Origin: a virus
Virus record (IMG/VR): IMGVR_UViG_3300005056_000002
Coordinates: 1 to 64,000 of that record
Strand: one strand, 5' to 3'
Length of the DNA stretch: 64,000 nt
The position numbers and the translations under genes were made by a program. The notes under the pieces are model-generated. The model was not told the DNA's origin. It did not search any database and saw only the letters and a program-made list of their open reading frames with translations. Positions 3,276-63,955 of this stretch are shown here, one piece after another; position 1 is the stretch's first letter; the number at the start of each line of letters is the position of its first letter.

Positions 3276-3302
3276 ACTCCCAATACTCTCTATTACAGGG
3301 AG
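3276..3302 (+). repeat. ACTCC-N-ACAGGG motif copy (non-coding)
   Basis: ACTCCCAATACTCTCTATTACAGGGAG, spacer 14. The ends can pair (ACTCCC/GGGAGT). Confidence 0.8.
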
Positions 3303-3347
3303 TTACGAAATGACCCTAAAAGCTTAGGATATACTGGACACCACATC

Positions 3348-3386
3348 GTAGTGGTCGTTTTGACTACGTGTAGTGGTCGTTATGAC
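3348..3386. repeat. tandem 17-nt direct repeat GTAGTGGTCGTTwTGAC x2 (period 22) with embedded hairpins
   Basis: Copies at 3348..3364 and 3370..3386. ACCAC-atcgta-GTGGT and GTGGTC-gttat-GACCAC inverted repeats overlap them. Confidence 0.7.
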
Positions 3387-3603
3387 CACTTGGATTCGCT
3401 GTAGCCCTTGCTATCATTGAGTTTGTATATATTCCTTTTAATACTATAATAGTGACCAAAATGAGTGCCATAAAAATATGACTCTGTGATAGGGTGAATA
3501 GGTGAATACATAATGATATAAAAAACCTACTGCCCCAAATAATAGATCGAAAATAACAAATAAGGACAGTAGGACAAATCAAAATGAAAAAACCTATGAT
3601 ATA

Positions 3604-3626
3604 CCCTGTACCAAACAAAGTGGAGT
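3604..3626 (-). repeat. ACTCC-N-ACAGGG motif copy (non-coding, minus strand)
   Basis: Reverse complement reads ACTCCACTTTGTTTGGTACAGGG, spacer 12. Only three G. Confidence 0.6.
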
Positions 3627-3737
3627 ACAAGGTGACATAAATGACGATAAACCACTAACAACCACCATGATATACCTGAAAATATGACAAAACAAGTAAT
3701 AATGGTGTGATGCTAGTGGAAGCTGTGATAGTGTAAG

Positions 3738-3766
3738 ACAAATGTGGACAAATGTACCACAAATGT
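3738..3766. repeat. ACAAATGT x3 at 10-11-nt (helical) spacing
   Basis: Copies at 3738..3745, 3748..3755 and 3759..3766. Iteron-like phasing in gene-free DNA. Confidence 0.6.
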
Positions 3767-3900
3767 AATGTGTAATGTATGATAGTGTGTGACACAAATA
3801 ACTGTACTAGCTGTGTGTGAAATGTGATGTGAGATAGTATATGGAACTAAGGCTGTAGTAGCTCTAAGTAAAGTAATATACTATAGATGTAAAAAATAGG

Positions 3901-3953
3901 CTAGGTAAGGTAAGTATGGAAGGTACTAGCAGCTGTAACTAGGTAAGGTAAGT
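3901..3953. repeat. 15-nt direct repeat CTAGGTAAGGTAAGT x2
   Basis: Exact copies at 3901..3915 and 3939..3953. Confidence 0.7.
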
Positions 3954-4263
3954 CGTAAACTGCGACATCTACGACCTTCCGAACCCTCTAACTAACTAAC
4001 TACTAAGCATACTCCTACGCTAAGTGTACCTAAAGTGTCTAAAGTACTATAATATCATAAACTCTATGGTATCTATGTCCTGTAGAGTGTGCCTTGGTGG
4101 CGTGTGAATGAATTTTTGTCATAAAAATAGCTCCAAAGACGAATCTAAGGAGCTAAAGGTATTGGGGACATGTAATATGTGGTCAGGGGCACAGTGTGTG
4201 CATACGTAGGAGTGGACATAGTGTGTGTTGCACCATGTCTTCACCCTCCCCCAAAGGTATATC

Positions 4264-4428
4264 CTACGTAATGTGGTGAAATGCTCTAACAGCTATGAAT
4301 ATACATATAACGCCAGCTAATACCACTAAAGGTATCTGTGTTGCTATAAGAATTAAACCTAGCATAAGTATTAGAACTATTTGCGCAACTAGTAATGAAA
4401 CTAGAAGGACTTGATGTATTGTCTTCAT
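4264..4428 (-). CDS. small 2-TM membrane protein (54 aa)
   Basis: Track ORF 4264..4452 begins with TTG. The first ATG (4428..4426) gives MKTIHQVLLVSLLVAQIVLILMLGLILIATQIPLVVLAGVICIFIAVRAFHHIT. Confidence 0.45.
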   Translation of the reverse strand: MKTIHQVLLVSLLVAQIVLILMLGLILIATQIPLVVLAGVICIFIAVRAFHHIT

Positions 4429-4461
4429 AATATTCTCTGTTATTGGATGCAAAGATAGTCA

Positions 4462-4641
4462 TTAGTTGACTATCAGTTGGGTTATAACTGTGAATATTAC
4501 GGTAATTGTTGCAAGCTTGGGATTCCTTGTAATTGAATCTATGCTGCTAACATGGGCTATAGAGTATTGTGGTAATGATGCTTGAATAGCATGTCCTATG
4601 TTCTTTCCTCTTTGTACTGTAATTGTATGTGATGTCTTCAT
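4462..4641 (-). CDS. small hypothetical protein (59 aa)
   Basis: Hand-found, one residue below the track cutoff: MKTSHTITVQRGKNIGHAIQASLPQYSIAHVSSIDSITRNPKLATITVIFTVITQLIVN. AACTAAC-type leader upstream. Confidence 0.3.
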   Translation of the reverse strand: MKTSHTITVQRGKNIGHAIQASLPQYSIAHVSSIDSITRNPKLATITVIFTVITQLIVN

Positions 4642-4690
4642 GTATGAGTATATTAGTAATGTTAGTTAAATCTCTGTTGTTACCAGAGGT

Positions 4691-4718
4691 AAAACCCACA
4701 CACCTTGCGATGTGTGGG
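4691..4718 (-). terminator. intrinsic terminator after 4726..5307
   Basis: Stem CCCACACA (4695..4702) / TGTGTGGG (4711..4718) with an 8-nt loop, followed on the minus strand by TTTT (4691..4694). Confidence 0.7.
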
Positions 4719-4725
4719 GATATTG

Positions 4726-5307
4726 TTAGTTTTGTGCAGCGTACTCTGCTTCCGCAGCAGCTTGAGTAGCATCATTTACTTCATATGTACCACCTGATGA
4801 ATTAATAGTTGTAGTTGGTTCAGCAACTACAGGTGCATAGATATCAGCGATACCAGCAGTAGCATCAGCAATAGCAAGTGCGTTCATTTGCAATGCTTGG
4901 TACTGCATGTTCTGCTCTAGTTCTAAGAACCCATCAACAACTCTTGCTTGGTCACGTTCTAATGTACGTTCGTCACCAACACTAGCAGTACCAAAGTCAG
5001 GATGTCCTACCTTCATACATAAACTGTCTTCTGTTACTTCCCACTTGTCACCCTTCTTAGAGTATTCGATGTTACCTTCTACGATACCACCTTTCAAGCC
5101 TTTGAACGCCATACGTACAGCAGGATGCTCAATGTTTTGTACGTTGTTACCAATTAAATACGAGTTCTTCAAGTCTTGAAGCATCTCTTTGGGTTTACGT
5201 ACAATTGCGGTCTTACCACATGTAGTCTTAATAACAGTTAAATTAATAACCTCACCTGCTGCGTTCTTATTGATTAACGCTACTGATTGTATTCTAGTCT
5301 TTACCAT
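4726..5307 (-). CDS. hypothetical protein (193 aa), likely strongly expressed monocistronic unit
   Basis: Clean ATG ORF followed within 8 nt by a hairpin plus T-run terminator (4691..4718). Ala/Glu-rich acidic C-terminus. No family recognised. Confidence 0.7.
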   Translation of the reverse strand: MVKTRIQSVALINKNAAGEVINLTVIKTTCGKTAIVRKPKEMLQDLKNSYLIGNNVQNIEHPAVRMAFKGLKGGIVEGNIEYSKKGDKWEVTEDSLCMKVGHPDFGTASVGDERTLERDQARVVDGFLELEQNMQYQALQMNALAIADATAGIADIYAPVVAEPTTTINSSGGTYEVNDATQAAAEAEYAAQN

Positions 5308-5367
5308 TGTTTTGGGATTAAAGAGTTATGATTGGCAATATGCCGTGTATTATAAAGAACCTCATGC

Positions 5368-5386
5368 AGTACGTGTCCAACGTACT
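5368..5386 (-). promoter_or_regulatory. 7-bp hairpin AGTACGT-gtcca-ACGTACT in leader of 4726..5307
   Basis: Perfect inverted repeat 61 nt upstream of ATG 5307 and 22 nt after the stop of the 5408..5509 ORF. No T-run, so its function is unclear. Confidence 0.3.
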
Positions 5387-5407
5387 ACACAAGGAATGAA
5401 ACGAAGC

Positions 5408-5509
5408 TTACGACCTCGATATGATTGATTGTATTATAAGGGTTATTATCCCTATCACTAGTGTTACTAGTCCTAGACCAATAAGCACTATACCTATTGA
5501 TACTAACAT
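5408..5509 (-). CDS. tiny 1-TM protein (33 aa)
   Basis: Hand-found: MLVSIGIVLIGLGLVTLVIGIITLIIQSIISRS. Its ATG overlaps the stop of 5503..5682 (ATGTTAG). Confidence 0.25.
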   Translation of the reverse strand: MLVSIGIVLIGLGLVTLVIGIITLIIQSIISRS

Positions 5510-5682
5510 GTAGTCACATTAGGTGTTGGAACAAGCTGCTCTATTGTGAATCCTATAAGGAACAAAGAAGCAATTGTCATGGCACTAAACCACAAGTTGT
5601 GTAAAGTCGCTAAAAAGAATAACGACAACACAGTCATAGTGAAGCCCAAGAGTAGCATCGCTACTAGTATAGAGGTTTTCAT
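5503..5682 (-). CDS. small 2-TM membrane protein (59 aa)
   Basis: Hand-found: MKTSILVAMLLLGFTMTVLSLFFLATLHNLWFSAMTIASLFLIGFTIEQLVPTPNVTTC. First gene left of the divergent region, with AACTAAAC leader at 5695..5702. Confidence 0.35.
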   Translation of the reverse strand: MKTSILVAMLLLGFTMTVLSLFFLATLHNLWFSAMTIASLFLIGFTIEQLVPTPNVTTC

Positions 5683-5706
5683 GATATTTATTGAGTTTAG
5701 TTAGCG

Positions 5707-5718
5707 GCAAACTAGTTG
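5707..5718. promoter_or_regulatory. operator-like repeat GCAAACTAGTTG (core palindrome AACTAGTT), copy 1
   Basis: Exact 12-mer repeated at 5861..5872 within the divergent intergenic region. Confidence 0.45.
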
Positions 5719-5860
5719 AAACCTAGTACAAAGAGGTACGGGTGGTTCGATTGCCAAGACTTAGCTATGGGTTCTATTGAAGGTGGTTCAGTCTCTCAGA
5801 AATTCACACAAAAAAATATATAAATTTTTTTACTTACACCTTACCTAGACAGCACAGTAC

Positions 5861-5872
5861 GCAAACTAGTTG
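5861..5872. promoter_or_regulatory. operator-like repeat GCAAACTAGTTG, copy 2
   Basis: Exact repeat of 5707..5718, 154 nt away. Followed by several GTGTC half-sites (5872, 5886, 5920, 5948). Confidence 0.45.
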
Positions 5873-6004
5873 TGTCCTTAGTTCGGTGTCCTAGTACAGC
5901 GTAGTCTTTCAAATCCTTGGTGTCAAATACTATCTTATGTCTTTCAGGTGTCTCAGAGCCTTCCCCCAATCAATCCTCGCCCCAAATCCAATAAATCCCC
6001 TCAG

Positions 6005-6030
6005 ACTCCACTATCTTCTCTTACAGGGGG
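6005..6030 (+). repeat. ACTCC-N-ACAGGG motif copy (intergenic, 134 nt upstream of 6164 gene)
   Basis: ACTCCACTATCTTCTCTTACAGGGGG, spacer 13. Confidence 0.85.
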
Positions 6031-6163
6031 AATATTAAGGAACACGCACGCACGAATACAAATAAAATACGACATACACAAATAAATCTTTCAAACCGCT
6101 TGGCACTACCACACTAAAACCGTATCTTTACCATTCATAACAGTTTAACTAAAACCAACTAAT

Positions 6164-6655
6164 ATGGAGAACACTATTACAGATGTTAAAGACCTTAGAG
6201 TAAGGTTAGACGTAATACTAAATGCTTTACAGCAACTACCTAAGAACAGAAACGCATCATTAGCCTTTACCTCTACGGAGAAGAGTAGAATGTACATGGG
6301 TAAGTTATTAGGTGTATTAGGTACTGAATACCCTTATGAAGCAACCAAGACAGCTACTAAGGCTTCTGAGATTGACGAACCTACTGATAAAGGTGAGAAA
6401 GTAATCATATTATCAGGAGAAGAGATTAAAGACTTGGTAGGGTTAAGAAAGATGCTTAACACAGAGTTAACTAATTTCTTGGAAGTTGCTTTTGGAGCAG
6501 GCGAGACTAATGGTATTACATTAGCTAAGGACGCTAGTGCATTAACTAAGTTCAAGATGAACTCTATTGTATCTGAGGTATATAGAGGTCTATGTGAAGG
6601 TAGTATGTATTTAGGTTTACAACTAGGGGAGATTAAGGCTAAGGATGGAGAGTAA
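6164..6655 (+). CDS. hypothetical protein (163 aa)
   Basis: First ORF of the rightward gene train. ATG is preceded by AACTAAAACCAACTAAT. No motif recognised. Confidence 0.6.
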   Translation: MENTITDVKDLRVRLDVILNALQQLPKNRNASLAFTSTEKSRMYMGKLLGVLGTEYPYEATKTATKASEIDEPTDKGEKVIILSGEEIKDLVGLRKMLNTELTNFLEVAFGAGETNGITLAKDASALTKFKMNSIVSEVYRGLCEGSMYLGLQLGEIKAKDGE

Positions 6656-6902
6656 TATCTTTATTAAAGCTAAAGGAGAACAAGGTACTTTATATATTAA
6701 AGTACCTGACTCTCTTATCGAGAGCTTATGTGATGTCCTTCATGAGGGTAATCATGTAGTAGGAGCTAGTAATCCTTTACAATGGGATTACAACATAGAG
6801 TTGGGTGACAGTTATGAGATAATGACTATAGAAGAGGTGAGGACGTTCGCAGAACAGAGTCATGTTAATAATGTAAATATATTAAAAAGAGAAACAGTAT
6901 GA
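6645..6902 (+). CDS. hypothetical protein (85 aa)
   Basis: Co-directional ORF with 11-nt overlap to the upstream gene. Confidence 0.55.
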   Translation: MESNIFIKAKGEQGTLYIKVPDSLIESLCDVLHEGNHVVGASNPLQWDYNIELGDSYEIMTIEEVRTFAEQSHVNNVNILKRETV

Positions 6903-7822
6903 AGTACGATGTAAAATACCACGTTAACTTAGAGGAAATGGTGGATGCTTTTATAGAAAGGCTTAATAAGAATTGTGAAGAAGTAGGCATAAAGAAAGTA
7001 TATGAAGTTGTTATTAAGAAGGGTACGTTTAAAAGTGATACAACTGTTGGTGATAGCAGTAAGACTACACAACCATTTAAGACCATTGTATTCTCTGTGG
7101 TTAACTTAGAGAATAGAGACAAGATAGTATTGTATAGTACAGATTATAGAGTAAGTAATCCTGCACAATGGCTAAGTACTCCTTGGAGAAAGAAGATGTA
7201 TGGAGAAGTATTGTTTAACTGTTTGTTAGGGTATGGTGCTTTAGCAGAACAGCAATTGTTGGCTGAGAGACTTAGGTCTTCCCCTGTAAAGGATAAGGGT
7301 GGAGTAGAAGAGTCCAAGCCTGTAGAGTCAGAGCAGAAGATAGCTAGGGATGATTTAAGTGCTGTAGATGAAGCACTAGATGAAATGGAGAAGGAAGCAG
7401 GAGAGAAGCTTGAAAGGAAGCATCCTCTAGTAGTAAGTGATAATGGTGAGGAAGTACACTTGAATGAAGAGGACTACCAAGCATGGTTAAAAGAGAATGA
7501 TATAGTAGAGGGAGAGGCTAAACTAGAAGATGGTCCAAAGCAGGTACTACCTCTACAAGGTATACGTGCAGAAGATATAGGATTAAAAGGAAAGCCTATG
7601 GAGATAGTAATGACTGAGTCTTGGCAACCTACAGAAGCTGAGAGTAAGAAGATAGAGTATGATGTAACTGAAGAGAAGATGATGGAGACAGTTGAGAAAG
7701 TCTTTAAAGAGAACCCTATGCCTGTATATGTAACAGGTCCAGCAGGTCATAAGGCTATTAATGAAGCTATGAAAGTAGAAGCTAATAAAAGATACGGTAC
7801 AGATGGAGAAGAAAGAAATTAA
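6899..7822 (+). CDS. hypothetical acidic protein (307 aa)
   Basis: ATGA overlap with the upstream stop. The C-terminal half is rich in Glu/Asp/Lys. Confidence 0.6.
   Translation: MKYDVKYHVNLEEMVDAFIERLNKNCEEVGIKKVYEVVIKKGTFKSDTTVGDSSKTTQPFKTIVFSVVNLENRDKIVLYSTDYRVSNPAQWLSTPWRKKMYGEVLFNCLLGYGALAEQQLLAERLRSSPVKDKGGVEESKPVESEQKIARDDLSAVDEALDEMEKEAGEKLERKHPLVVSDNGEEVHLNEEDYQAWLKENDIVEGEAKLEDGPKQVLPLQGIRAEDIGLKGKPMEIVMTESWQPTEAESKKIEYDVTEEKMMETVEKVFKENPMPVYVTGPAGHKAINEAMKVEANKRYGTDGEERN
7281..7305 (-). repeat. ACTCC-N-ACAGGG motif copy (antisense inside 6899..7822)
   Basis: Reverse complement reads ACTCCACCCTTATCCTTTACAGGGG, spacer 13. Confidence 0.8.
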
Positions 7823-8036
7823 GATAAACCCTGTAGGAAGTATACCCCTTATGACTATACAAGAGAGGGCTGATTGGGGTGTTAAGTGGCAAAGAGAATG
7901 GATGGAAGCATCTAATAAGATGGGCGTTAAAATAAAGAACGCTACACTTAGTGAAGAAGAGTATAATTATGTAACAGACCCTTTAGGTCTTAAAGGTAAA
8001 GACTCTAAGCTTACATTAAAACCATCCAATGGCTAA
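7803..8036 (+). CDS. hypothetical protein (77 aa)
   Basis: Co-directional ORF. Ends ..KPSNG stop inside the 22-nt junction repeat. Confidence 0.5.
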   Translation: MEKKEIKINPVGSIPLMTIQERADWGVKWQREWMEASNKMGVKIKNATLSEEEYNYVTDPLGLKGKDSKLTLKPSNG

Positions 8037-8038
8037 GA
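8017..8038 (+). repeat. 22-nt gene-junction repeat TAAAACCATCCAATGGCTAAGA, copy 1
   Basis: Contains the ..KPSNG stop of the upstream gene and the overlapping ATGGCTAAG start of the next gene. Confidence 0.8.
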
Positions 8039-8154
8039 GCAACCAACTACAACATGTACCTATATGGAAGATTCCAGCTAGGACAAAGGAGCAAGATGCT
8101 AGGTGGGAAGAAGTATGGAAGAAGTGTACTAACATAAAACCATCCAATGGCTAA
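8029..8154 (+). CDS. small hypothetical protein (41 aa), not in ORF track
   Basis: Hand-found: MAKSNQLQHVPIWKIPARTKEQDARWEEVWKKCTNIKPSNG. Fills the gap between 8036 and 8147. Its start and end both lie in copies of the junction repeat TAAAACCATCCAATGGCTAAGA. Confidence 0.35.
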   Translation: MAKSNQLQHVPIWKIPARTKEQDARWEEVWKKCTNIKPSNG

Positions 8155-10627: not shown

Positions 10628-10647
10628 AGAAACATAAATATAAAAGG

Positions 10648-43078: not shown

Positions 43079-46000
43079 ATGGGTAAACAAAAGAGTAAGG
43101 CTGTTAATACTAACAGCCTTTTTGGTGGTCTTGACACTACTAATACTACTACACCTGATGATACTGGCGGTTTACTAGCTGGAATGAGTGCCTTTAAACG
43201 AGGCACTTTTTCTACGTTAGAAAATACTGATAAAGGTGTTGACTTGGACAACTACAAGCATTTAGGCGAAGGCTTAATTAACTTTGGTAGTGTGGAACAA
43301 GCTAACACAACTAGAGCTAGGAATCAGAGTAATTGGGAACAAGTATATCACGCAGGGGCTAAGTTCTTGCCTAACGTAGCGTTAGAGATACTTAACCAAG
43401 CAGGTAGTATTCTTGATGTCGAAGACTACTTTAACAGTGATGATGAACTAGGAAACTGGTTAAGTACTTGGGCTACAGAACAGAAAGCTGCAAGTAACGC
43501 CCGTTCACCTATCTACAGGGAAAACGAAGGGGAAGCATTAGACTTCGGGGACTTCGCTTGGTGGATGGAGAATGGAAGTAGCTTAGTAGAGAGCGTAACT
43601 GCTTTTGCTGCTGTAGGTTTCGCTACAGGTGGAGCTAACTTAGCTGCATTAAACAGAGGTGCTAAAGCTTTAGAGTTCTTTAAAGTTCTTGGTAAAGGTA
43701 AAGCTGCTGCTAGTGGTACTAAAGCTGCTATACAAGGTGCAGCTACCGTTAACAATGCTTTCTTATTGAACCATGCGGAAGGTATGGGTATTGCAACTAG
43801 CGTATATGCTACAGTTTATAAACGTGAGTTAGAGAAGCTACAAGCAGCAGGTAATAAAGATGCTGATGCGTTAGCTAAGAAGAAAGCAGCTAAACAAGGT
43901 GAAAGTGCTTTAAGTGCTAATAGAATCAATATGGTATTGAATCTATCTAGTGCTAGCTTATTCATGAAGACTCCTGCTTTAACTAGACAGGTAAGAAAAG
44001 CTGTATCTAGTAAGAAGAACATTAGTAGAGCTGTAGGAGAAGGATTCCAAGAGTCAGGAGAAGAGACTATCAACATGTTGGCTGAGAAGCAAGCATTGGA
44101 CGATGACTACGGATTCACTAAAGGTCTTGAAGATGTATTAAGTAAAGAAGGGTTTGAAGCACAACTACTTGGTTTTGTAGGTGGAGCAGGACAAACAGGA
44201 CTTACTAATGCAGGTAGGAGATTGAAGCTAAGAAAGGACGAAAAAGGTTCAAGAATTAGTGATAATACCTTACAGAATCGTGCGTATGCGAAGCAGAAAG
44301 AGAGCCTAGATAAAATTGCAGAAATGAGTAAGGGCGAAAAATTATCGACCAGTTCTGATGCGATTATGAGGTCTAAAGAAGTTTTTCAATTACATAGAGA
44401 GATAGATCAAGCATTTGAAGATGGTGATACTCCTAAGTTTGAACAGCTTAAAGGTCAACTATTGAGTAACCAAGCTTACGATGCTTTTAGTAATGGTACT
44501 ACTGAGCAGCTAATTAACGTCTTTAAAGGTATTAAGGATATGGATGTAGAAGCTGCTGGTGATAAAGGTATGGACGTTAAGACTTATAAAGACCAAGCTA
44601 CAGAAGCTATTGACTTTATAGAAGGTCTTGAAGTAGAGTTCAACAAATCACAAGCGTTTGTTAATGCTGCTGATGTTTATAGCAATAGAGCTAGGAATAC
44701 ACAACTACGTACTAGAAAGGCTAAGTTAGAAGCTAACTTACCTAAGATAGTTGAGGAAGTTAAGCAAGATTTGGCAGACCTAGGAGTTAAGGAAGAAGAG
44801 ATAGAGATTGATGGTCAATTGGCTTTCAAGATTAAGACTAAGAAGAATATAGAAGGTCTTGCAAGTCTTGCAGATTATAAGGCGAGTTTGGGGGAAATCA
44901 GAGAAATCAGAAGGACTCAAACACGACTTGGACAAAGACACTTAAAGCTTACCTCAGCCGAGGAACAAACTAAGATCAAAGAGAAGATTAGAAAAGGTCA
45001 AGAAGAATTAGCAGAGGAAGCTTTGGAAGATGAGTTAGCCCCTGTAAAGAAGAAGGCTACGGAGCAAAAGGCGGCTGTAGTTCAAACTGCCGAAGATAAC
45101 AAGGTTGTTAAAGCGCAAGAAGATGCTGCTGCGGCTATAGCTAAGGCTAATCCTACTGCACCTGCTGCACCTACTACTGACCAATCTTATACATTCAAGT
45201 CTGATAACCCAGGTTTAGTTACTGTAGTTGATGGTGCTAATAAAGTAATGGCTTCTAAAGTTCCTACTAAGAGTAAGATAGAATCTCTTAAAAGAGGTAT
45301 AGCTCACTTAACTAAGAACGCACACTTAGAAGGTATGTCAGGTATCATAGCACAACACACAGAAGCTATTAGAGTATTGGAAGCAGAAGAGGAAGCTCAA
45401 CAAGCTCAACAAGCTCAAAGTTCTATGGACAACAGTGATATAGATAGTGCTTTAGATGGTTTAGCTAATGATATGTCTCCTGACGAGTTTGATGGTGATG
45501 TTGCTTTAGAGCAAGATAGTTATGATGGTGACCAAGACCCTATCTCACAAGATAAGGAAGAACAGATAGTAGGACAAGTTAGAAAGCTTATCCATGCTTT
45601 GAATGTAATGGAAGATGCTGGTTTAGATACTAGTAACTTTAAGGTAGTTTCTGATAGACTACAAAAGACTGTAGGAGAAGAGAAGCACCACAAGATATTT
45701 GAGAAGTTCAAGAGTTTATATAACCTTACAGGTCAATCACCTGTGCCTGTTGTTGATACTTATGAGAGTCTTTACTTTACTGATGCTGAGAATGAAGCAA
45801 TAGCAAGTAATGACCAAATAGTACGTGCTGATAGTATCTTAAATGATTTTTATTCTCATACTGCTTTTGGATTCAAATTAGAGGAAAAAAGAGCATTAAA
45901 AGAGTACATAGAATCACAAGGGTATAAAGTTAATGCTAAAGAGAATGTAACGGAAGCAGACAGCTTTAAAATCGTTGAAGCTTATAATAAGGTTGCCCAT

Positions 46001-58000: not shown

Positions 58001-58534
58001 GGTTTAGCTACCTCCACGTCTGCTATATTAAAGGGGCTGACAAGAAGTGCAACGTTAGGTTATGCTTTCAAGAGTCATGACTTTAAAGCTGCAATGGAAG
58101 GTACTGATTTAACTGATAACGATGCTGCTAATCTTAGAAAGACTATGACAGAAGCAATTATGTACTTGACGTTAGGTGGTAGTTACTTAATGCTGAAAAG
58201 CTTTAAGGATGGACTAGACGATGATGATGATAGAAAGTATGTATTGAACTTACTTCTTAATCAGACTGGTAGACTTAAGACTGATATCTTGTTTTACTTA
58301 GACCCTAGGGAAACTAAGAACTTGATGAAAGACTTAATACCTGTTACAAGTCTTATTACTGATACCTTTCAAATGGTGGATGCTATAGCACAGTTTGCTA
58401 TGGGTGAAGATGATGTTAAAGGCGGTATTTACAAAGGTGATAGTAGGTTGTTAAGAGAAGTTCTTCAATCTATGCCACTAGGAACACAGGCATATAAGTC
58501 GGTGAACTACGTGTCTCAAACATTTGAGAAGTAG
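43079..58534 (+). CDS. giant polyvalent virion protein (5151 aa) with ART-like domain and two-barrel RNA polymerase-like module
   Basis: Single stop-free 15,456-nt ORF with an ATG start 6 nt after the upstream stop. Gly/Ala-rich hydrophobic N-terminal segments. ART-like YHGT..GFWFT..EYVVFDP block (aa ~1490-1615). beta-prime-like RIPT..(39 aa)..GSDFDADK (aa 2887-2931). Hydrophobic segments near the C-terminus. Followed by a bidirectional terminator. Confidence 0.85.
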   Translation: MGKQKSKAVNTNSLFGGLDTTNTTTPDDTGGLLAGMSAFKRGTFSTLENTDKGVDLDNYKHLGEGLINFGSVEQANTTRARNQSNWEQVYHAGAKFLPNVALEILNQAGSILDVEDYFNSDDELGNWLSTWATEQKAASNARSPIYRENEGEALDFGDFAWWMENGSSLVESVTAFAAVGFATGGANLAALNRGAKALEFFKVLGKGKAAASGTKAAIQGAATVNNAFLLNHAEGMGIATSVYATVYKRELEKLQAAGNKDADALAKKKAAKQGESALSANRINMVLNLSSASLFMKTPALTRQVRKAVSSKKNISRAVGEGFQESGEETINMLAEKQALDDDYGFTKGLEDVLSKEGFEAQLLGFVGGAGQTGLTNAGRRLKLRKDEKGSRISDNTLQNRAYAKQKESLDKIAEMSKGEKLSTSSDAIMRSKEVFQLHREIDQAFEDGDTPKFEQLKGQLLSNQAYDAFSNGTTEQLINVFKGIKDMDVEAAGDKGMDVKTYKDQATEAIDFIEGLEVEFNKSQAFVNAADVYSNRARNTQLRTRKAKLEANLPKIVEEVKQDLADLGVKEEEIEIDGQLAFKIKTKKNIEGLASLADYKASLGEIREIRRTQTRLGQRHLKLTSAEEQTKIKEKIRKGQEELAEEALEDELAPVKKKATEQKAAVVQTAEDNKVVKAQEDAAAAIAKANPTAPAAPTTDQSYTFKSDNPGLVTVVDGANKVMASKVPTKSKIESLKRGIAHLTKNAHLEGMSGIIAQHTEAIRVLEAEEEAQQAQQAQSSMDNSDIDSALDGLANDMSPDEFDGDVALEQDSYDGDQDPISQDKEEQIVGQVRKLIHALNVMEDAGLDTSNFKVVSDRLQKTVGEEKHHKIFEKFKSLYNLTGQSPVPVVDTYESLYFTDAENEAIASNDQIVRADSILNDFYSHTAFGFKLEEKRALKEYIESQGYKVNAKENVTEADSFKIVEAYNKVAHLDKKFKNHVEVTSVKFNVLDFVTSKQDIDRELNDAVDEVLLDPSILKKGEAITFKVLDEVIYEDGTIVTKEGTVTKDGETVNRKPSEIAPIAIFYKGEQIKGAYLHTMDWVNDANIAESGDVARQRRYLSSIRQAVLDAGLDGITSKVSERSDGWLLADPKGAKNLVSINLPKVQIGIGKDGFVETGELTIANVDGKDIQNGMPYAVITTGSNEQRALPIQPIQIKEHPEYIESMVNAVKMYFANDPNDTRVNKLAEETGINIRSIKGLEQYLNKFIHLYPYKDSKTGKSYYKFNDFKKLLNSKDDNLSMVRIVGDNLEFGRGFDVGGAVGFLNRQILNQLPADKRKATIEKGIEKFTNVISNNSYMNVNKDAMLKDFQLPLITDTDVNVTTSSYDDFIKQHLRSSFYSHTLPNGKEIYTIQSNIEFDTSFAVNEKPVRTDTAVETPMIEVAAPKVVTSGDTTYTFSTEEFNEEDLDPVIDDTGSISDIFNNTPDLAKAGTVQEYLDYLGTVFPNSEVSYPLYHGTKNKFKTFDVNTWNNETDKIFHSKGFWFTHFEEEAENYGGIIKTVLVDIKKPHRKPVGFNAKNERVFADQVDDVTIALEQGNDSAILDINEGGLDGESPVTEYVVFDPKQIHTLGSKEDIEGFKKYTTVDLDPTIISDERLAELKGTTPKSLLIQGVHINIQNTVVDHLTANFLKSTLKDGDSSAAFNSFVAFKDTLKSAREHYNDARKSDDANQARVGERYHGIVSALYNNYDSLIDLAVNKLSKVNGLNVKLEGKTMDLLAERLDFDSADSNAISEDGELKEYNNWANDDVFRENIKEKMSTSVKNFFSAIDDAQVKDGVIVPVKGFLGITKTVSFDAVINDLNAILSYHNDISEGSVITPTFDNMVEVIENWVDKKPYLQNVLEALDDADEKIKNEFVSVMSKHYTHHIYVLKNKDGKFFVNNSDANNIVETIQTKWMNNLYDNDLIQENDGTFVVDGEKVAELEIEVEGLIQDLKSNSPDKYKTGSSVLKKLGFGFEDALVKHLIDNGVKYSKNHHVLLHMLTSSDGAIKLYLNNLKAISGKDVQANHPFADNTALKGFAREIGKSFPTYFASSFKDVRGRTYFGYSSNKFLTDRVRELKSNEYLLRRLQKQPFTANSLWGNALLNDSKFKKYFGYFTYDGTTTVGKEVGKKLEQSSPAEVEQAKVALFFSMRKGRDFIIRLFYPTTSNKTVQPGLQVLGKDWADGTNNGQLRKNQQHELFEILVQPEINRILSIQDDADKHNIKGYEEGGRMFNMLPALNNVKELWEKDGKLKTNINSDAKLKAVVLSEIRQYINSAVSDKLSKWDSYGLIETKEEVQMVEGDRVWMETPRALIVTGKDPKAEAFNFVVNYLVANVNIYQTFITDPAFYFKSKQWKTVVAREGVQETVNTRQGALKHYNKEDWLQEHEDIFNNIGKRLAADAAPGTDLPNSVNDSFVLGYLRDSEREVYLMEYYTALLGAEGATDYLAANSTDAQEFTTLSEHLHVLVLQGKLSTEDKVRLEGLEISGSTLLTKDIAQIFQPVKPVYVANHWKNDIEHRIYVKSSSFPLIKQLTRNLEIDKLRVAMVEQKVDRIAFESAVKVGGTNTGTQIYTDNEGTVSKSIKIDTIGRLSREGFKIQQEIPYDENKQSINDGTQQIKLLTANLRDIKGFKVRGDDSSHTGQSIQDLLDKSYKAIYDEHYTNLVADIEYDEINNTLNTDKLAELLRKEAVTRGYPLYDIAALDTYVDQHGETKFIVPLWLTGVSGKLEAMLNSIVDSRVRKLKPKGKSYTLGASEGFKPVKQGKDAQDTINNTTGIVWDAEWFGRTDGQLQPMRIEDANGNVMGSEGFDKATGFVKYAEILVPFKFKDDKGKLVKVEDYTNEDGTMDMTKLSPELLNMFGFRIPTQYLNSMSAIKVVGFLPKSSGDLLLAPADWAVQMGSDFDADKLYSNSYNTSFDSETGALSIYEGDSVIKTMENHILDLHFSIMGNKDAEVQRRILKPLDFGMLKDLADEIYGFSTGRSKGYGMTEEYQSFKYLNARAGKAGIGVFSTDNTFIAAVQNKGIFLQKREGTSIQAYSIRLGGQDSNMISDTEVNVKGANRDKTDVISAFQSLAVDDENEQGLFKLNINTSTFDAIRTLVMSGFEEDIISYFINQPIIKKYTELKVQADDSLSPLKEIEIPAKIAELFPITDTTLDVNGTDFKLKYGNTSKAELLRVISGGEADVNRQRALFNLFTEVTEFGKNIQFVQSTINTHSAGLGKDLFYSTIKAQQVNSLQNYSVVANADKLIGEYMQLDGSGASGWGKANDTEKLKMITDLRAEGYMPTTEVKVKGDFKAAVTLIKPTTLAGFTTTNALNLNNKMWSRFFPYGNRGIDTVIDALKVHIGKGTSLGSQSDNSRQAFSVIKSYLAVTGMGTYTDGDVLSERNRLMIDTKDNKSLASIIHLLRNTNKISNDFINRLELDLKKEVLPSNIVYKASVAENVDERMINASFAAMLLNNTTVLGEFNGITYTPQKLAQDLITQQLLMGGVQKSNQFIKYIPINYLVNAGYYAKLDNTNFEDAHLFNGNAITSQYLQHNPDKVQVKGLDVGFEFFEKKTIVRKTSEGDAFMDGVFSIKNPKAVSGYDIYFFNEVSDQWEQKDTLGLKDLLEYNNEGSYGESIIKSNQVPKVKTVDLPTDPTKVNKILEVAKVNEKGPDVISEPNNESLNDFYNLKSNEDIVTKLSYIFNKIQTTNKDPYHQLMATEIGKNLDKISDYKFIINRNLKAKGSHSLKDKTIQINPTKFRGREQFESTIIEEVIHALTKKAINDNKTGEVLRLKGLLNVAQEAVKEHLASLNLDPEMEFAKVIYAMKRGEALTPFQGNVIYPVINEAEFIGRLFKSKKLQELLNNKEGNLDDKSLLAKVWDYVIEILNSVGLDIKKGSALEYAVKDILSLINLETPPSSVTGEIARTQQKERTPDFIVNKFNLLNEDGSQREVDNAQEVADWVNLHTSNLEAKVVKGYVVIENKPRYNDQFTLDLDPDTIEEKQKGKASPLLRAYNNRMKNLEKLINKAEVQGDYQRSERLKDQLEIVTEKRNETVTISSLRNIENTDLYYKGQQDMEEVKEMLKSTLTLEDTLYIRKIIHFWKKATTVLFDEQDRNSSKLMEDFKSIEKDAEVLEDLLVKEETKFMNSFIRKHGKDISVADIFAHFKDINGLSSRTLDISRSGNELLNSVFKAVKEANIDALDETNEVLKDLQDMEDSIRPILKEMGHTELYDVFRQRTADGNLTGHLVKRINRDFSRGFNSQLNSLRDLNNVDGFKAMLNWGRENLKAVKLEYLIKPNQLSKEDQALAKTYREELKAELGAVHYAEYVGQQAEMVNLYQKKLDSKLRNIAEDANVKPSEIYTDVKLKKELDTWVAKNSPYMANQYLEGSFPKVAGDAKGFNNFDFVIPLPKDANGYDANYKKIESNPKLLAFYKYYNKIDAEMQMYLPDDVKRSLAYTGVPHIGKTILELFKDKGMKVGLAPIWDEIRKSIRIVEEDVISTGTIDPVTNKVESGVAIKLTKENGAEINKHTALKALEYRTKTSQEATVEMMQKWRAEKIHELATLKSFDLGKILKVYTMTTLAYKHKSKIEDSVQLAQNILESQEEYQRTEIGKIKTDTEGNLIKNTSDNSFKNLKFQFEYFVDKFKGKSNPVEGVTTKVVLTSEEKKEKKEMEALKGALDKSLDAGTISKIDHGNSITTLDGYIDELGGVAVQSKRVDNALKWVQLTKMGWNVMSSISNVGFGYIANRIEASGGEHYTGKQLTDAYKLTGHSLWKNATFNTQETETAKKIRSIMDGWDILKDASHELFSKPLDVSLGRKTKWLSPYNVTQRTEYINQAPIMIAMMMNTKIKTDKGDVTLWDGFGKDGKWDSSKGNVEASLLAETTKTLRMKIDQVNKMNHGNYDPTSALALKKNVLGRAVSQFRTWMFEGYAIRFEKAKKDAVLGDRKGRYVSTKDFFSQVGLATSTSAILKGLTRSATLGYAFKSHDFKAAMEGTDLTDNDAANLRKTMTEAIMYLTLGGSYLMLKSFKDGLDDDDDRKYVLNLLLNQTGRLKTDILFYLDPRETKNLMKDLIPVTSLITDTFQMVDAIAQFAMGEDDVKGGIYKGDSRLLREVLQSMPLGTQAYKSVNYVSQTFEK
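45039..45065 (-). repeat. ACTCC-N-ACAGGG motif copy (antisense inside giant gene)
   Basis: Reverse complement reads GCTCCGTAGCCTTCTTCTTTACAGGGG, spacer 15. Confidence 0.7.
47546..47923 (+). other. ADP-ribosyltransferase-like (ART-PolyVal-like) domain
   Basis: SYPLYHGTKNKFKTFDV...SKGFWFTHFEEEAENYG...VTEYVVFDPKQIHTLGS gives an H / aromatic-x-(S/T) / E arrangement of the H-Y-E ART clade as found in polyvalent phage/ICE proteins. Recognised by eye only. Confidence 0.5.
48017..48044 (+). repeat. ACTCC-N-ACAGGG motif copy (giant gene, phase 0, just after ART-like domain)
   Basis: ACTCCAAAGTCTCTGCTTATACAGGGGG, spacer 15. Confidence 0.8.
50075..50101 (+). repeat. ACTCC-N-ACAGGG motif copy (giant gene, phase 0)
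   Basis: ACTCCACGTGCTCTTATTGTTACAGGG, spacer 16. Confidence 0.7.
50801..50842 (+). other. possible beta-like barrel lysine motif
   Basis: VDRIAFESAVKVGG (aa 2575-2588), about 340 aa upstream of DFDAD. Compare the RHGNKG-type motif of RNAP beta. Weak. Confidence 0.25.
51725..51880 (+). other. beta-prime-like double-psi beta-barrel with DxDxD catalytic motif
   Basis: MFGFRIPTQYLNSMSAIKVVGFLPKSSGDLLLAPADWAVQMGSDFDADKLYSN. Compare E. coli beta-prime [43 protein letters not shown]. D2926/D2928/D2930 lie at 51854..51868. Confidence 0.6.
54851..54875 (+). repeat. ACTCC-N-ACAGGG motif copy (giant gene, phase 0, linker-like region)
   Basis: ACTCCACCTTCTTCTGTTACAGGGG, spacer 13. Encodes TPPSSVTG. 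Confidence 0.85.
56629..56651 (-). repeat. ACTCC-N-ACAGGG motif copy (antisense inside giant gene)
   Basis: Reverse complement reads ACTCCACTTTATTCGTTACAGGG, spacer 12. Closely resembles the 3604 copy. Confidence 0.65.
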
Positions 58535-61098: not shown

Positions 61099-61295
61099 AA
61101 CTGTTCTTGAATTTTGTTATAGAATTGTTTTCGTTCTTCGGGGCTTTGTAATAAATCAGGATTACAACAAGAGAAGTCAGGGGTACATTCATCCTCTACT
61201 TGGTTATGTATGGGATTCCCGTCTACCCATTCCTCTAATTGCTCTTGCATCCTACCTATATAAGTAGGGTTTGATACTGCGGATTTCTTATTCAT
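61095..61295 (-). CDS. hypothetical small protein (66 aa)
   Basis: ATG ORF overlapping both neighbours by 4-8 nt. Contains CTPDFSCCNP. Confidence 0.5.
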   Translation of the reverse strand: MNKKSAVSNPTYIGRMQEQLEEWVDGNPIHNQVEDECTPDFSCCNPDLLQSPEERKQFYNKIQEQL

Positions 61296-62616
61296 AGTCT
61301 CTAATTAAGTTATCTATTACATGATAAGGTAAGTCTTTCTCAGTCCATTCATAGAAGGTACATGTTAAGTCCTTCCCTATTACTTCATGTGGGTTAGCTA
61401 AAATCCACATCTTATAAGCAGTGTCTTTACTTGGTGTAACATCAAAGTACAAACCTTTCTTAGTTACACACTGGTAATTCCCTAAACTCGGGTCTTTCTT
61501 TTGTGGTATAACAGCAGTAATGATAAACTCTTCATCCATTACTCTTTTAAGCTTAACTAAAGCTACAGGTCGTCCTCCAAAAGAATACATACCATCAGCT
61601 TGTCTAAACATACTACCTTCAAAACCAGCTTTAATAGCACCATCACAATGGGCTTGGGCTGCTTTATCATTCATGATAGTAACAGTAGGTATAAGCTTAA
61701 CAGGACAAGAATTATGGATTACTAGTTTAGGCTTAATATCAGCCGTAATCATCTTCCATCTTTCTAGGTTAGTAGCTTCTTCTATAGCTAAATCAAATAG
61801 TATAAAAACAACTCTAGGTGTATTAAGACTTACGTCATTAACAGCAGAAGATATAGTACCTAATATCTCCCCATGTATGTAAAGTTCTCCATCTAAGATA
61901 AGTTCCTCTCCTTCTCCAAAGATATCTCTATTTAGATTAAGGAAGTCATTAATATGAGTTACCTTATTATAAATCTTACCATCTTTACTCTTAATAACTA
62001 CTAAGTTATTAATGATTTGGATAGTACACCTAACTCCATTAATCTTAGGTTGACCAAGACAAGGGAACTTAGGAATGATAGAACCCTTCTCTTTCTCTAC
62101 ATGAGGGTTCTTCAAGTAATAATACTTTCTTTCCTTCCATAGTTTACCAGTAGGGTCAGTCCAGTTACTCTTCTTACGATAGTACTGTTGTGCCCTCATA
62201 GGCTTAGCATTACCATCCTTATCAGTACGATTCTTAGGTAAGAACTTGTTCAACTTAGTTAATAAGTCTGATAACCCTATGTCTTCTGTCATACTTGTGA
62301 ATCCCATTTGCATAGGTACATCAGGTGTGATATAAGAAGCAATAGCTTCATCTAAGGTCATATACCCTTTACGCTTCTTAGTATTAATAGTACTTTCAGC
62401 TTGTGATACTGCTTGTTCAAAAGGTGTAGTAGCGTTAGATTTACCAATGTTCTTCCCTCTAACGTTCCTTTCCCATCTTAGGGATTGTGCCCCTTCAAAT
62501 TGACCATAAGACTTCCTTATGTCTACTTGTAAACCAAGAGCCAATACTTCAATGCTCCATTGAAGTATGCTCCCATTAGCGGCTCTGGCGTATAATGTAT
62601 CAAACGCTTGGTTCAT
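61288..62616 (-). CDS. ATP-dependent DNA ligase
   Basis: Nucleotidyltransferase motifs in order: I QPKINGVRC (K191, KxDG-type with Asn), III LILDGELYI, IIIa VFILFDL, IV FEGSMFR, V ALVKLKR. Has an N-terminal ~85-aa extension ending KKRKGY. Confidence 0.85.
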   Translation of the reverse strand: MNQAFDTLYARAANGSILQWSIEVLALGLQVDIRKSYGQFEGAQSLRWERNVRGKNIGKSNATTPFEQAVSQAESTINTKKRKGYMTLDEAIASYITPDVPMQMGFTSMTEDIGLSDLLTKLNKFLPKNRTDKDGNAKPMRAQQYYRKKSNWTDPTGKLWKERKYYYLKNPHVEKEKGSIIPKFPCLGQPKINGVRCTIQIINNLVVIKSKDGKIYNKVTHINDFLNLNRDIFGEGEELILDGELYIHGEILGTISSAVNDVSLNTPRVVFILFDLAIEEATNLERWKMITADIKPKLVIHNSCPVKLIPTVTIMNDKAAQAHCDGAIKAGFEGSMFRQADGMYSFGGRPVALVKLKRVMDEEFIITAVIPQKKDPSLGNYQCVTKKGLYFDVTPSKDTAYKMWILANPHEVIGKDLTCTFYEWTEKDLPYHVIDNLIRDYE

Positions 62617-62743
62617 GGTTCTCTCTTAAATAAGATTCCATAGATAGCTGTTGTTCTGTACGGCTATTACTATTATAAGGTCTATCTACACCATGTCTCT
62701 CCATAGCTTCTATAATCTGTTCTATAGTTAATAAGTATTTCAT
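62600..62743 (-). CDS. small hypothetical protein (47 aa), not in ORF track
   Basis: Hand-found: MKYLLTIEQIIEAMERHGVDRPYNSNSRTEQQLSMESYLRENHEPSV. ATGA overlap with the stop of 62740..63441, and the 3' end overlaps the ligase start. Confidence 0.4.
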   Translation of the reverse strand: MKYLLTIEQIIEAMERHGVDRPYNSNSRTEQQLSMESYLRENHEPSV

Positions 62744-63441
62744 ATCATTTCAATTCTACTAGTTAATATTTCCTTCATATCCTCACCTCTATAAGCTGCT
62801 AGTGGGTCATGTAGTTTTAAATGCGCTAACTCTACTATAGCTTTAAATTTTCTTACTATCTCATTACAATGTAAGATTCTCTTACAAAGTACTTCATAGT
62901 CAAATGTCATTTCCCCAATTCTAAATTCTAATGTCTTGCAATGTTGGTGAACTCTTACCCAATCTCTAGTCCAACTCATATCCCTACCATTGTAAGTACC
63001 TTTATAACCCCATGAATCTAATTCAGCTAGAATCCACTCTTTATTAGCTTCTACTAATTCAGGTGTAATCTTATGGTACATATCAGTACAGTCTATATGG
63101 TAATGTACTCCACTTCTAGGGTCTAGTTCGCTATTCCGTTTTAGTGCTTGTGAGATATCTGAAAGACATCTAAGCCCTGTTAAACCACTAGGTATTCTAA
63201 ACCTTTGTTCATCTTTATCAATGTTAACAGACATAATGTTAGGTATATTAGTAAATACCCTGTGAGAGAAGGTATCCTTTCGCATACATTCAATCTCGAA
63301 ACCAGTACTAAAAGGTAGGAGATAATCTCCTACCTCGTTAGCATCGGGGTCATCCTCACTAAAAGCATGAGGATTTTTAAGTAATACTTCGTTAGTGCTC
63401 TCTATGAGGTCTACGTGAGCTGGTAGTAGTAGTTGCAACAT
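62740..63441 (-). CDS. amidoligase-like protein (Amidoligase_2 / GS-like fold)
   Basis: STGFEIECM (GxExE-type strand), SGVHYHID (HxH) and KTLEFRIGEMTFDYEVLCKRILHCNEIV (cf. tiEFRxhxgTld...) match the order of conserved blocks I recall for the putative amidoligase family. Confidence 0.55.
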   Translation of the reverse strand: MLQLLLPAHVDLIESTNEVLLKNPHAFSEDDPDANEVGDYLLPFSTGFEIECMRKDTFSHRVFTNIPNIMSVNIDKDEQRFRIPSGLTGLRCLSDISQALKRNSELDPRSGVHYHIDCTDMYHKITPELVEANKEWILAELDSWGYKGTYNGRDMSWTRDWVRVHQHCKTLEFRIGEMTFDYEVLCKRILHCNEIVRKFKAIVELAHLKLHDPLAAYRGEDMKEILTSRIEMI

Positions 63442-63955
63442 TCTTCTTTTGTTTATCTACTAGCTTCTGAGCTTTAGCAGCGGTTGTTTTACTTACTTTG
63501 TTTTTAGCAGTCTTAGGTGCTTTAGTAGTGCCTAAAGCTTTCTGTGCTTTAGCTACTTTAGCTGCTTTATCTACTTTAGATTTCTCCATTATCTCAATGA
63601 TAGCGTTCTTTCTACCTATACTATTTCTTTCGTTATAGTCTTTTACCATCGCAAGGACTCCAACCCTCTCTGATTTCAGGGGAATCGCACGTGAGTACTT
63701 AGTACTTCCTATCATTACTATAACGTTCCTACCTACAGCTCTAGCATTAATCTGCTTTTTGATTACCTTCTTAACTAATTTCTTAGCTTTAGGCTTCTTA
63801 GCTGCTATAGCCTTAGCTTTAGCTGCTGCTTTCTTAGCCTTCTCTTTAGCTTTGATTGCTGCTTCTTTCTTCTTAGCTGCTGCCTTTTGTTTAAGTGCTA
63901 GTGCTTTCTTTTTTGCTGCTTCTTTTTGTTTAGCAGTTGGTTTCTTGTTCTCCAT
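63392..63955 (-). CDS. histone H1-like Lys/Ala-rich DNA-binding protein
   Basis: 187 aa. The N-terminal 65 aa are AKK/KKA repeats (KQKEAAKKKALALKQKAAAKKKEAAIKAKEKAKKAAAKAKAIAAKKPKAKK), followed by a globular middle and a second KA-rich tail. Confidence 0.65.
   Translation of the reverse strand: MENKKPTAKQKEAAKKKALALKQKAAAKKKEAAIKAKEKAKKAAAKAKAIAAKKPKAKKLVKKVIKKQINARAVGRNVIVMIGSTKYSRAIPLKSERVGVLAMVKDYNERNSIGRKNAIIEIMEKSKVDKAAKVAKAQKALGTTKAPKTAKNKVSKTTAAKAQKLVDKQKKNVATTTTSSRRPHREH
63657..63682 (+). repeat. ACTCC-N-ACAGGG motif copy (+ strand, antisense to the minus-strand H1-like gene)
   Basis: ACTCCAACCCTCTCTGATTTCAGGGG, spacer 14. The 3' box is TCAGGGG. Confidence 0.7.

Follow-up and report, generated by a model that had tools for sequence, protein, structure and literature searches.

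The DNA window examined here, 64,000 nt in length (positions 1 to 64,000 of the IMG/VR virus record IMGVR_UViG_3300005056_000002), is part of a marine crAss-like phage of the order Crassvirales. It carries, in many copies and on both strands, a bipartite DNA motif in which an ACTCC box is followed after 12–16 nt by an ACAGGG box. The source scaffold is ENA ERZ23495903 scaffold_96, an 88,467-bp metagenome scaffold, and the same phage is held in JGI sample 3300029927. The sequence read comprised the window together with 7,603 nt to its left and 9,441 nt to its right, both flanks being taken from the scaffold, which amounts to about 81 kb of a genome of about 88 kb. Leftward genes with early and replication functions, including primase, ligase, ThyX, rIIA-like and exonuclease-type functions, extend up to 5307 and are found again from 58733, and a rightward structural and late block runs from 6164 to 58534. 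Ring and tail proteins are also encoded in the window, along with the following landmark genes.

11138-13393: terminase large subunit
13403-15742: portal
17173-18672: crAss-type major capsid protein
43079..58534, plus strand: giant virion-protein open reading frame (ORF) of 5151 aa, with an ART-PolyVal domain and a DFDAD signature

The giant ORF has the position typical of crAss-like phages, after the tail and ring genes. Its ART-PolyVal ADP-ribosyltransferase domain occupies residues 1496–1611, and DFDAD, the catalytic signature of RNA polymerases, was located at residue 2926 (nt 51854). From this catalytic motif and synteny only, the ORF is predicted to encode a two-barrel virion RNA polymerase. 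The signature has Ala at its fourth place, a place at which crAss-like polymerases carry Ile or Val according to the study of phage phi14:2.

The consensus of the motif is g-ACTCC-ac, a pyrimidine-rich spacer, cTaTTACAGGGgaA and then about 12 T-poor nt, and anchored logos read g-ACTCC-ac, spacer, c-T-a-T-T-A-C-A-G-G-G-g-a-A. The gap from ACTCC to ACAGGG was 13 nt in 11 copies, 12 nt in four, 14 nt in three, 15 nt in four and 16 nt in one. There are 18 copies in the window (12 plus, 6 minus) and 23 in the approximately 81 kb as a whole (15 plus, 8 minus). They are listed below with their profile scores; start positions quoted in the text may differ from the listed ones by a few nucleotides.

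3275..3303, plus: GGACTCCCAATACTCTCTATTACAGGGAGTT, in a ~1-kb non-coding region, antisense to the leftward early unit; 17.9 bits
3601..3626, minus: non-coding, co-directional with the leftward genes; forms a convergent pair with the copy at 3275, 328 nt apart; 13.7 bits
6004..6032, plus: GACTCCACTATCTTCTCTTACAGGGGGAA, in an 856-nt divergent regulatory region, about 130 nt upstream of the first late gene (6164); 26.3 bits
7278..7305, minus: antisense inside gene 6899-7822, in a poorly conserved part of the protein; 22.7 bits
10601..10629, plus: in the 46 nt that separate the exonuclease gene (stop at 10601) from gene 10648, a spacer consisting of the motif and an A-rich leader; 22.0 bits
11482..11509, plus: inside the terminase large-subunit gene, overlying the conserved peptide LQDLHITGE by way of the rare synonymous codons CTC, CTT and GGG; 16.4 bits
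15947..15975, plus: sense in gene 15777-17138, encoding TPPSSTTGD in a variable linker-like segment; 25.2 bits
23848..23876, plus: sense in gene 23004-24209, in a C-terminal part without homology in relatives; 19.7 bits
32333..32361, minus: antisense in gene 32092-32769; 23.9 bits
32600..32626, plus: sense in the same gene 32092-32769, where it uses the rare codons CTC and CGC; the copy at 32333, 264 nt away, makes up a divergent pair with it; 21.2 bits
38529..38557, minus: GACTCCACTATCTTCTATTATAGGGGAA, antisense in gene 34892-38710, with a C-to-T change in the 3' box (TATAGGGG instead of TACAGGGG); 22.0 bits
39162..39188, plus: sense in gene 38717-40261; 21.9 bits
45036..45064, minus: weakest copy (GCTCC...ACAGGGGC), antisense in the giant ORF; 9.7 bits
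48016..48045, plus: sense in the giant ORF; 19.2 bits
50074..50105, plus: copy with the longest spacer, sense in the giant ORF; 18.0 bits
54850..54878, plus: best-scoring copy, GACTCCACCTTCTTCTGTTACAGGGGAAA, sense in the giant ORF, encoding TPPSSVTGE; 27.5 bits
56626..56652, minus: antisense in the giant ORF; 16.3 bits
63656..63685, plus: TCAGGGG variant, antisense in the minus-strand gene 63392-63955; 17.5 bits
64722 (minus), 69090 (plus), -6320 (plus), -5442 (minus) and -1014 (plus): copies beyond the window, in window-relative positions

All 16 copies listed in an earlier note on this DNA were recovered at the coordinates and on the strands it gave, as were the four other plus-strand ACAGGGG sites it mentioned (12978, 27127, 35573 and 36415), while two minus-strand copies, at 32337-32360 and 38529-38557, had been missed and are new. 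Its judgement by eye that the two boxes occur together far more often than chance would allow was upheld. The pattern CTCC-N12-16-CAGGG gave 16 matches in the window compared to 0.74 ± 0.86 (maximum 4) in 100 dinucleotide-preserving shuffles. A profile hidden Markov model (HMM) built from the copies placed 22 members at 13.7–27.5 bits, above a background consisting of one 10.9-bit match at 70551 and otherwise of matches at or below 6.9 bits. The copy at 45036 scored 9.7 bits, under the 10.9-bit background match, and is thus a weak member admitted by the regular expression.

The spacer had been described as pyrimidine-rich and variable, and it is indeed 74% pyrimidine (6% G) with a gap of 12–16 nt; it is nevertheless semi-conserved rather than arbitrary. 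The best copies are near-identical through the spacer too, for example ACTCCrCTrTATTCTATTACAGGGG in three copies, and near-identity over 25 nt was seen among the copies at -6320, -5442, -1014 and 32601. Since the best copies match across the spacer, the motif is better described as an element of about 30 nt tolerating small indels than as two boxes joined by an arbitrary spacer. The approximately 12 nt downstream are likewise distinctive: copies antisense to genes contain 23 T there compared to 34.3 expected (P=0.007), on a strand that is locally T-rich as a rule. The motif is a real feature, statistically secure and under selection.

Within genes, the number of copies was compared to that in synonymous-codon shuffles, which kept the protein sequence and codon usage of each late gene. 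An average of 1.15 matches (maximum 5) was obtained over 300 trials compared to 12 observed, and the strict pattern gave 0.19 compared to 9. The motif is therefore a DNA-level signal, as had been argued earlier against a repeat at the protein level. The rarest codons of the genome are concentrated in the copies, with three CTC (expected 0.14), five TCC (expected 0.21) and eight GGG (expected 1.29); CTC makes up only 1% of Leu codons in the genome. The 3' box of the terminase copy overlies the near-invariant peptide H-I-T-G-E, and the codons completing the motif (CTC, CTT and GGG) are not used by most of 35 relatives, which indicates that this copy arose in place. Comparison with relatives was possible for four in-gene copies, three of which fall in poorly conserved or linker-like protein segments.

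The codon phases read earlier for the sense copies were reproduced, with phase 0 at 15948, 48017, 50075 and 54851, phase 1 at 23848 and 39162 and phase 2 at 11482 and 32601. Such use of every frame applies to box 1, which is translated in all three, but not to the 3' box, which is read in the ACA-GGG frame in six of eight sense copies and in the CAG-GGG frame in the other two, and in the five antisense copies in late genes always as CCT-GTA or CCT-ATA. This restriction of the 3' box to two frames in sense and one in antisense suggests avoidance of the frame that would create a TAA stop. A 35-nt identity with the relative L002 in the terminase gene was considered as nucleotide-level conservation and set aside, being mostly the invariant peptide LQDLHITGEHYG with a few shared codons. 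The idea that copies mark boundaries of homology or recombination was likewise rejected once low-complexity filtering was switched off.

Copies are present in all genome modules. The split between strands is 12:6 in the window (p=0.24) and 15:8 in the genome (p=0.21), neither of which is significant, so that the 12:4 bias attributed to the genome strand by the earlier note does not stand. Nor is the recurrence it saw every 3–5 kb clearly regular, the coefficient of variation of the gaps being 0.73 compared to 0.96 under random placement (P=0.08). Two post hoc patterns of orientation were found: the orientations alternate maximally along the genome, with 17 runs (permutation P=0.005) and every minus copy isolated between plus copies, and of the eight neighbouring pairs less than 2 kb apart, seven consist of copies facing opposite ways (label-permutation P=0.006). 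Random placement of the minus copies gave P=0.11, compatible with chance.

Non-coding DNA makes up about 7% of the sequence by hand estimate and holds six of the 23 copies, including the four in the window already recognized as such; four of the six are co-directional with the flanking genes. Spacers are very scarce in the late block, and two of them carry the motif in sense, at 6005 and 10602. The 6005 copy lies in the regulatory DNA ahead of the 52-kb late operon, and the 10602 copy directly before the kinase-like, terminase and portal genes. The proximity of copies to terminators showed no clear pattern; our own script missed an evident hairpin, and a scan with a dedicated tool was no clearer.

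No deposited crAss-like phage has a capsid protein more than 39% identical to that of this phage. Environmental samples, in one case from Tara Oceans, are the main source of the uncultured relatives at 55–76% capsid identity. No relatives above approximately 76% were found in phage, viral-contig, metagenome or protein collections except one 3.2-kb contig, which is 93% identical to the window phage and covers no motif site. Conservation in related phages had been proposed in the earlier note as a check on the motif, and was not found: the motif is private to the window phage. Across 863 kb of relatives (60 loci, capsid identity 26–76%), the profile gave marginal matches only (best E=0.017), and those examined were coding coincidences, formed either by Thr-Gly codons or by a T-P...L-T-G-E loop of the exonuclease. 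In keeping with this, an enrichment of TACAGGGG in relatives with a 24:1 strand bias was discounted as mainly in-frame Thr-Gly coding, and motif-like matches in the exonuclease genes of three relatives as the product of the peptide TP..LTGE in a variable loop. Phage phi14:2 has no motif copy and no comparably over-represented k-mer (best P ~1e-6 compared to 5e-12 in the window phage). Scans of a viral-contig collection and of 185,579 species genomes of bacteria and archaea returned, among the matches listed, isolated single matches at chance rate and no stretch with a second copy.

The closest relatives with usable sequence, L002 and L208 (72–74% identity), have no motif at the counterparts of the 6005 and 10602 sites. 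The late operon of L208 begins 36 nt after the divergent genes, compared to 856 nt in the window phage, and in both relatives the exonuclease and kinase-like genes abut where the window phage has its 46-nt spacer. The motif-bearing non-coding DNA is therefore new in the lineage. A more distant relative, L030 (IMGVR_UViG_3300036715_000723; 54% capsid identity), carries TTACAGGG seven times in 21 kb compared to 0.35 expected. Five of these matches (673-16590) are on the plus strand and two on the minus; an AT-rich upstream part takes the place of ACTCC in them, and they may represent a sister version of the same signal.

The single likeliest reading of the motif, and one that we advance tentatively, is a putative phage-specific, promoter-like site of transcription initiation. 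Under this reading the motif would be a double-stranded DNA recognition signal for a phage-specified protein machine. The upstream box gACTCCac would act as the specificity element, some 20–28 nt upstream of the start, and the pyrimidine-rich spacer would set the distance with a tolerance of about 2 nt either way, as in two-element promoters. The AT-rich TATTACA would be the melting region, and RNA would start on the G run (GGGGAA) and continue through a T-poor initial stretch. The reader might be the virion RNA-polymerase domain of the giant ORF or a host polymerase redirected by a phage factor. The 6005 and 10602 copies would then drive the late operon and the kinase-like, terminase and portal genes, respectively, and the approximately 20 other copies could serve as internal and antisense starts for re-initiation, regulation or replication priming.

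Several observations argue for a promoter. The layout is compatible with one, comprising two boxes at a gap of 12–16 nt, the AT-rich TATTACA, an invariant GGG, conservation extending into G-A-A and the T-poor stretch. No Bacteroidetes-type promoter was found in the region upstream of the late operon in the window, and because promoters of the phi14:2 type are absent there, some other promoter must serve the operon. The promoters of phage RNA polymerases (T7, T3, SP6 and P23-45) are similar in being conserved asymmetric motifs of 20–30 nt with about 15–25 copies per genome, in having an upstream segment resembling GACTC-ACTAT, an AT-rich segment and an initiation-like GGG(A/G)A, and in having lineage-private specificity, and the window phage encodes its own virion polymerase. 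A precedent is provided by the single-polypeptide two-barrel polymerases, virion and non-virion, of the Thermus phage P23-45, for which conserved specific motifs occur at 14 and 7 mapped start sites and are missing from relatives that lack the polymerase.

A considerable body of evidence weighs against this reading. Relative to local transcription, 13 copies are sense and 10 antisense, the antisense copies score as highly as the sense copies, and the 17 of 23 copies lying within genes have no consistent relation to downstream gene starts; known phage-polymerase promoters, by comparison, lie upstream of genes or at mapped starts and are co-oriented. T7-class promoters have a contiguous consensus of about 23 bp with invariant spacing rather than a gap of 12–16 nt, and the promoters of N4-type virion polymerases form a stable DNA hairpin (5–7-bp stem, 3-nt loop), whereas the motif has no consistent hairpin. 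Relatives with the same type of polymerase normally keep a related promoter in place, but here the relatives sharing the gene layout of the window (42–76% capsid identity) and phi14:2, presumably with a virion polymerase of that kind, all lack the motif. In a k-mer scan of the 21-kb pieces of relatives, which has low power, coding repeats were found and no analogous private motif except that of L030. In phi14:2, the early transcripts made by the virion polymerase have no detectable common upstream motif, and the middle and late genes are transcribed by the host polymerase from host-type promoters. Finally, searches against Pfam, PHROGs and NCBIfam, which covered the larger ORFs of the genome except for about 7.7 kb (positions 44559-52241 of scaffold_96), revealed no extra RNA polymerase, sigma-like factor or other reader, and a T7-like single-subunit RNA polymerase was not found either (no RNA_pol match). 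The promoter hypothesis of the earlier note is thus favoured by the layout of the motif and the placement of the 6005 and 10602 copies, and is disfavoured by the antisense and in-gene copies, the motif-free relatives, the situation in phi14:2 and the absence of a T7-like polymerase from those searches.

The middle and late promoters of crAss-like phages, known from phi14:2 and used with host sigma-A, deserve separate comparison, as they belong to the same order and genome layout and would be expected upstream of late genes. Their consensus, derived from the regions upstream of g070, g075, g108, g092 and g093, is unrelated to the motif: it is A-rich, with cTTGa/c, about 19 nt and TAnnTTTGTA, compared to ACTCC...TTACAGGGG. 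Neither the -33 TTG nor the -7 TAnnTTTG element is present in the motif. Among 137 published matches to the phi14:2 promoters, 120 are intergenic, and all but four of those are sense.

A genome-wide binding site, or 'self' tag, for a lineage-private sequence-specific DNA-binding protein is an alternative of nearly equal likelihood. Such a protein could mark phage DNA for replication initiation, packaging or condensation, or for sparing from the phage's own nucleases; orientation would matter little and the density of sites would be what is selected. This would account for the 13:10 split of orientations unlinked to gene direction, the spread of copies over all modules, and the accommodation of in-gene copies through synonymous and tolerated changes in particular frames and mostly in poorly conserved segments. 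A motif private to one lineage is expected of a fast-evolving pair of protein and site, and the opposite orientation of close copies could reflect pairing or looping. The promoter-like 3' half, with its AT-rich segment, G run and T-poor stretch, would be left unexplained, however, as would the appearance of new motif-bearing non-coding DNA exactly upstream of genes. Family, structure and profile searches gave no DNA-binding domain or candidate binding protein, and no dispersed tag of such a kind was found for any phage in the literature searched. One conceivable factor is P0141, an 808-aa early protein without recognized family (L063 15189-17615, outside the window), although its candidacy as the reader of the motif is only a guess. 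It has no homologue in 50,697 phage genomes (tblastn) and none in Pfam, NCBIfam or PDB; a domain of about 80 residues (residues ~451-524, FKKGDYIV...NW[RK]YAT.EE) is common to it and 36 otherwise unrelated metagenome proteins. Its single-sequence AlphaFold model has a pLDDT of 28 and is unusable. A more specific proposal, which we regard as unlikely, is that the motif is a self-recognition tag distinguishing the phage's own genome from host DNA, a viral counterpart of DNA uptake sequences. The signal of about 30 nt, occurring about every 3.5 kb on both strands, would be read by a lineage-private protein, and selection or molecular drive for density would rewrite synonymous sites and linker peptides. 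The DNA uptake sequences of Pasteurellaceae and Neisseriaceae are similarly some 10–30 nt long, lineage-specific, present in both orientations and mostly in genes, and they too originate by point changes in place, with a bias for particular reading frames and poorly conserved protein positions. They differ in being cellular, linked to competence and present in hundreds to thousands of copies, and in having reading frames that correlate with preferred codons, whereas the motif uses rare ones. We know of no analogous system in phages.

The other readings are less probable still. Site-specific single-strand nicks in virion DNA, an alternative raised in the earlier note, would here be made on either strand by a putative phage nickase and appear quite improbable. 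Known nick motifs (R/GCGCRGG in T5, CGACxxxxxCCTA/CTCCGG in phiKMV-like phages and WACT/RTGAC in tf and Rembedalsseter) share with the motif its dispersal, asymmetry and indifference to gene boundaries and number about a dozen sites per genome (14 in tf, 13 in Rembedalsseter), and a DNA ligase and a PD-(D/E)XK-type exonuclease are among the gene products of the phage. The likeness to the phiKMV consensus pointed out in the earlier note does not go beyond the shared tetranucleotide CTCC. Every characterized nick system is one-stranded, with a consensus of 7–19 nt at fixed spacing and with number and position conserved across related phages (the tf-type motif is kept across 61), whereas the motif is split 15:8 between strands, is about 30 nt long with a variable gap and is absent in relatives, and so fails on all three counts. 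No nickase (HNH, GIY-YIG or similar) was seen among the scanned proteins. As an indirect proxy, a second, fragmented assembly of this phage offers six contig ends, of which only one lies near the motif. That the copies are footprints or ends of small mobile elements, or crossover sites of a site-specific recombinase with inverted pairs flanking cassettes, is very improbable. The alternating orientations, the near-identity of some copies over 25 nt and the location of the 10602 copy within DNA missing from relatives would fit, but the pairing was noticed post hoc, similarity does not extend past the core of about 30 nt to shared flanks or target duplications, and the terminase copy clearly originated in place through synonymous changes. 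For several pairs an inversion would be lethal, as they are located in essential genes, and independent assemblies show no inversion at the pairs 3276/3604 and 6005/7282. A 131-aa ORF between the copies at -6320 and -5442 has no Pfam match, a 55-aa ORF is too short for a recombinase, and the other proteins scanned included neither a recombinase nor a transposase. A role in RNA, as a structured element, processing site or small-RNA target, has very little to commend it: CTCC and GGGG could pair weakly and two of eight folded copies (3276 and 38529) fold better than shuffles, but most copies have z-scores near zero and predicted structures that differ from one another, Rfam gave no match and a tRNA search was also negative, and 10 of 23 copies are on the non-transcribed strand. 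An origin of the pattern by chance, or from coding through a repeated peptide or codon bias, has negligible probability, despite the T-P...(T/Q)-G peptides encoded by four sense copies, the exonuclease-loop peptide of relatives that spells parts of both boxes and the conserved HITGE beneath the terminase 3' box. Both kinds of shuffle fall far short of the observed counts, box 1 occurs in three frames, and six copies are non-coding and ten antisense. RNA-guided transcription (dCas12f-sigmaE) was considered and dropped, as nothing specific matches, as were IHF-like, Chi-like and topoisomerase-site readings, which are numerology or incompatible with the length of the motif. The remaining probability belongs to mechanisms that we have not thought of.

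Dispersed repressor sites offer a further comparison. The stoperators of cluster A mycobacteriophages are asymmetric repressor sites of about 13 bp, numbering two to three dozen genome-wide with some within genes; they are short, point in the direction of transcription and are found in temperate phages whose repressor has been identified. The motif, in contrast, shows no correlation between its orientation and transcription, and neither a repressor nor a lysogeny module was seen. Taken over all comparisons, the motif departs in at least one tested defining feature from every known family considered, the exception being its uptake-sequence-like behaviour.

The crAss-like phages are among the most abundant viruses, and the signal recognized by their giant virion RNA polymerase is still to be defined; the sole experimental study, that of phi14:2, yielded no promoter motif for it. 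A role as a polymerase signal, if borne out, would make the motif the first one defined for the crAss-like virion polymerase family. A role other than that of a promoter would make it a dispersed binding or self-tag site acting at the DNA level, of a kind not described for phages in the literature searched. In either case, the motif is a concrete, synthesizable substrate for asking what a crAss-like virion polymerase or DNA-binding factor recognizes, even though the phage is uncultured. It is also an example of overlapping constraints, a non-coding requirement of about 30 nt being written into essential genes against codon preference. The restriction of the motif to one lineage suggests that recognition systems turn over quickly within the Crassvirales.

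Further observations were made on the genome itself. The window and scaffold_96 are circular permutations of each other, with scaffold position 1 corresponding to window position 28884, inside gene 28241-30559, and the window running across that point. This fits a genome of about 88.5 kb that is either circular or terminally redundant; the two offsets between window and scaffold disagree with the scaffold length by 260 nt. In the late block, hairpin-plus-T-run terminators follow the capsid gene (18673-18745) and gene 20847-21833 (21834-21932), and the latter spacer also contains the sole Bacteroidetes-like -7 element (TAAGTTTG) seen in the block.

The non-coding region of about 1 kb at 3226-4263, within the leftward early unit and containing the two convergent motif copies, is reminiscent of long stretches between genes in phi14:2 (g004-g006) that show very high transcription at the early stage of infection. 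Directly 5' of the copy at -5442 (minus), at L063 18168-18198 (approximately window -5419 to -5389, minus strand), there is a hairpin, GGGTGGTTCGAGTCCACCCTACTCACA, that resembles the T-arm and 3' acceptor strand of a tRNA. ARAGORN and Rfam gave no tRNA at this hairpin, which may be a tRNA remnant or mimic. In the 536-nt gap without a called gene at 1862-2397, two direct-repeat pairs about 180 nt apart with 77% identity (1857-2226), not reported by Tandem Repeats Finder, are probably uncalled tandem paralogous small ORFs on the minus strand. Lastly, a 37-nt segment (TAAAACCATCCAATGGCTAAGA...) is duplicated at 8017-8053 and 8135-8171; it includes the start codons of two adjacent small genes and looks like a duplicated translation-start region.

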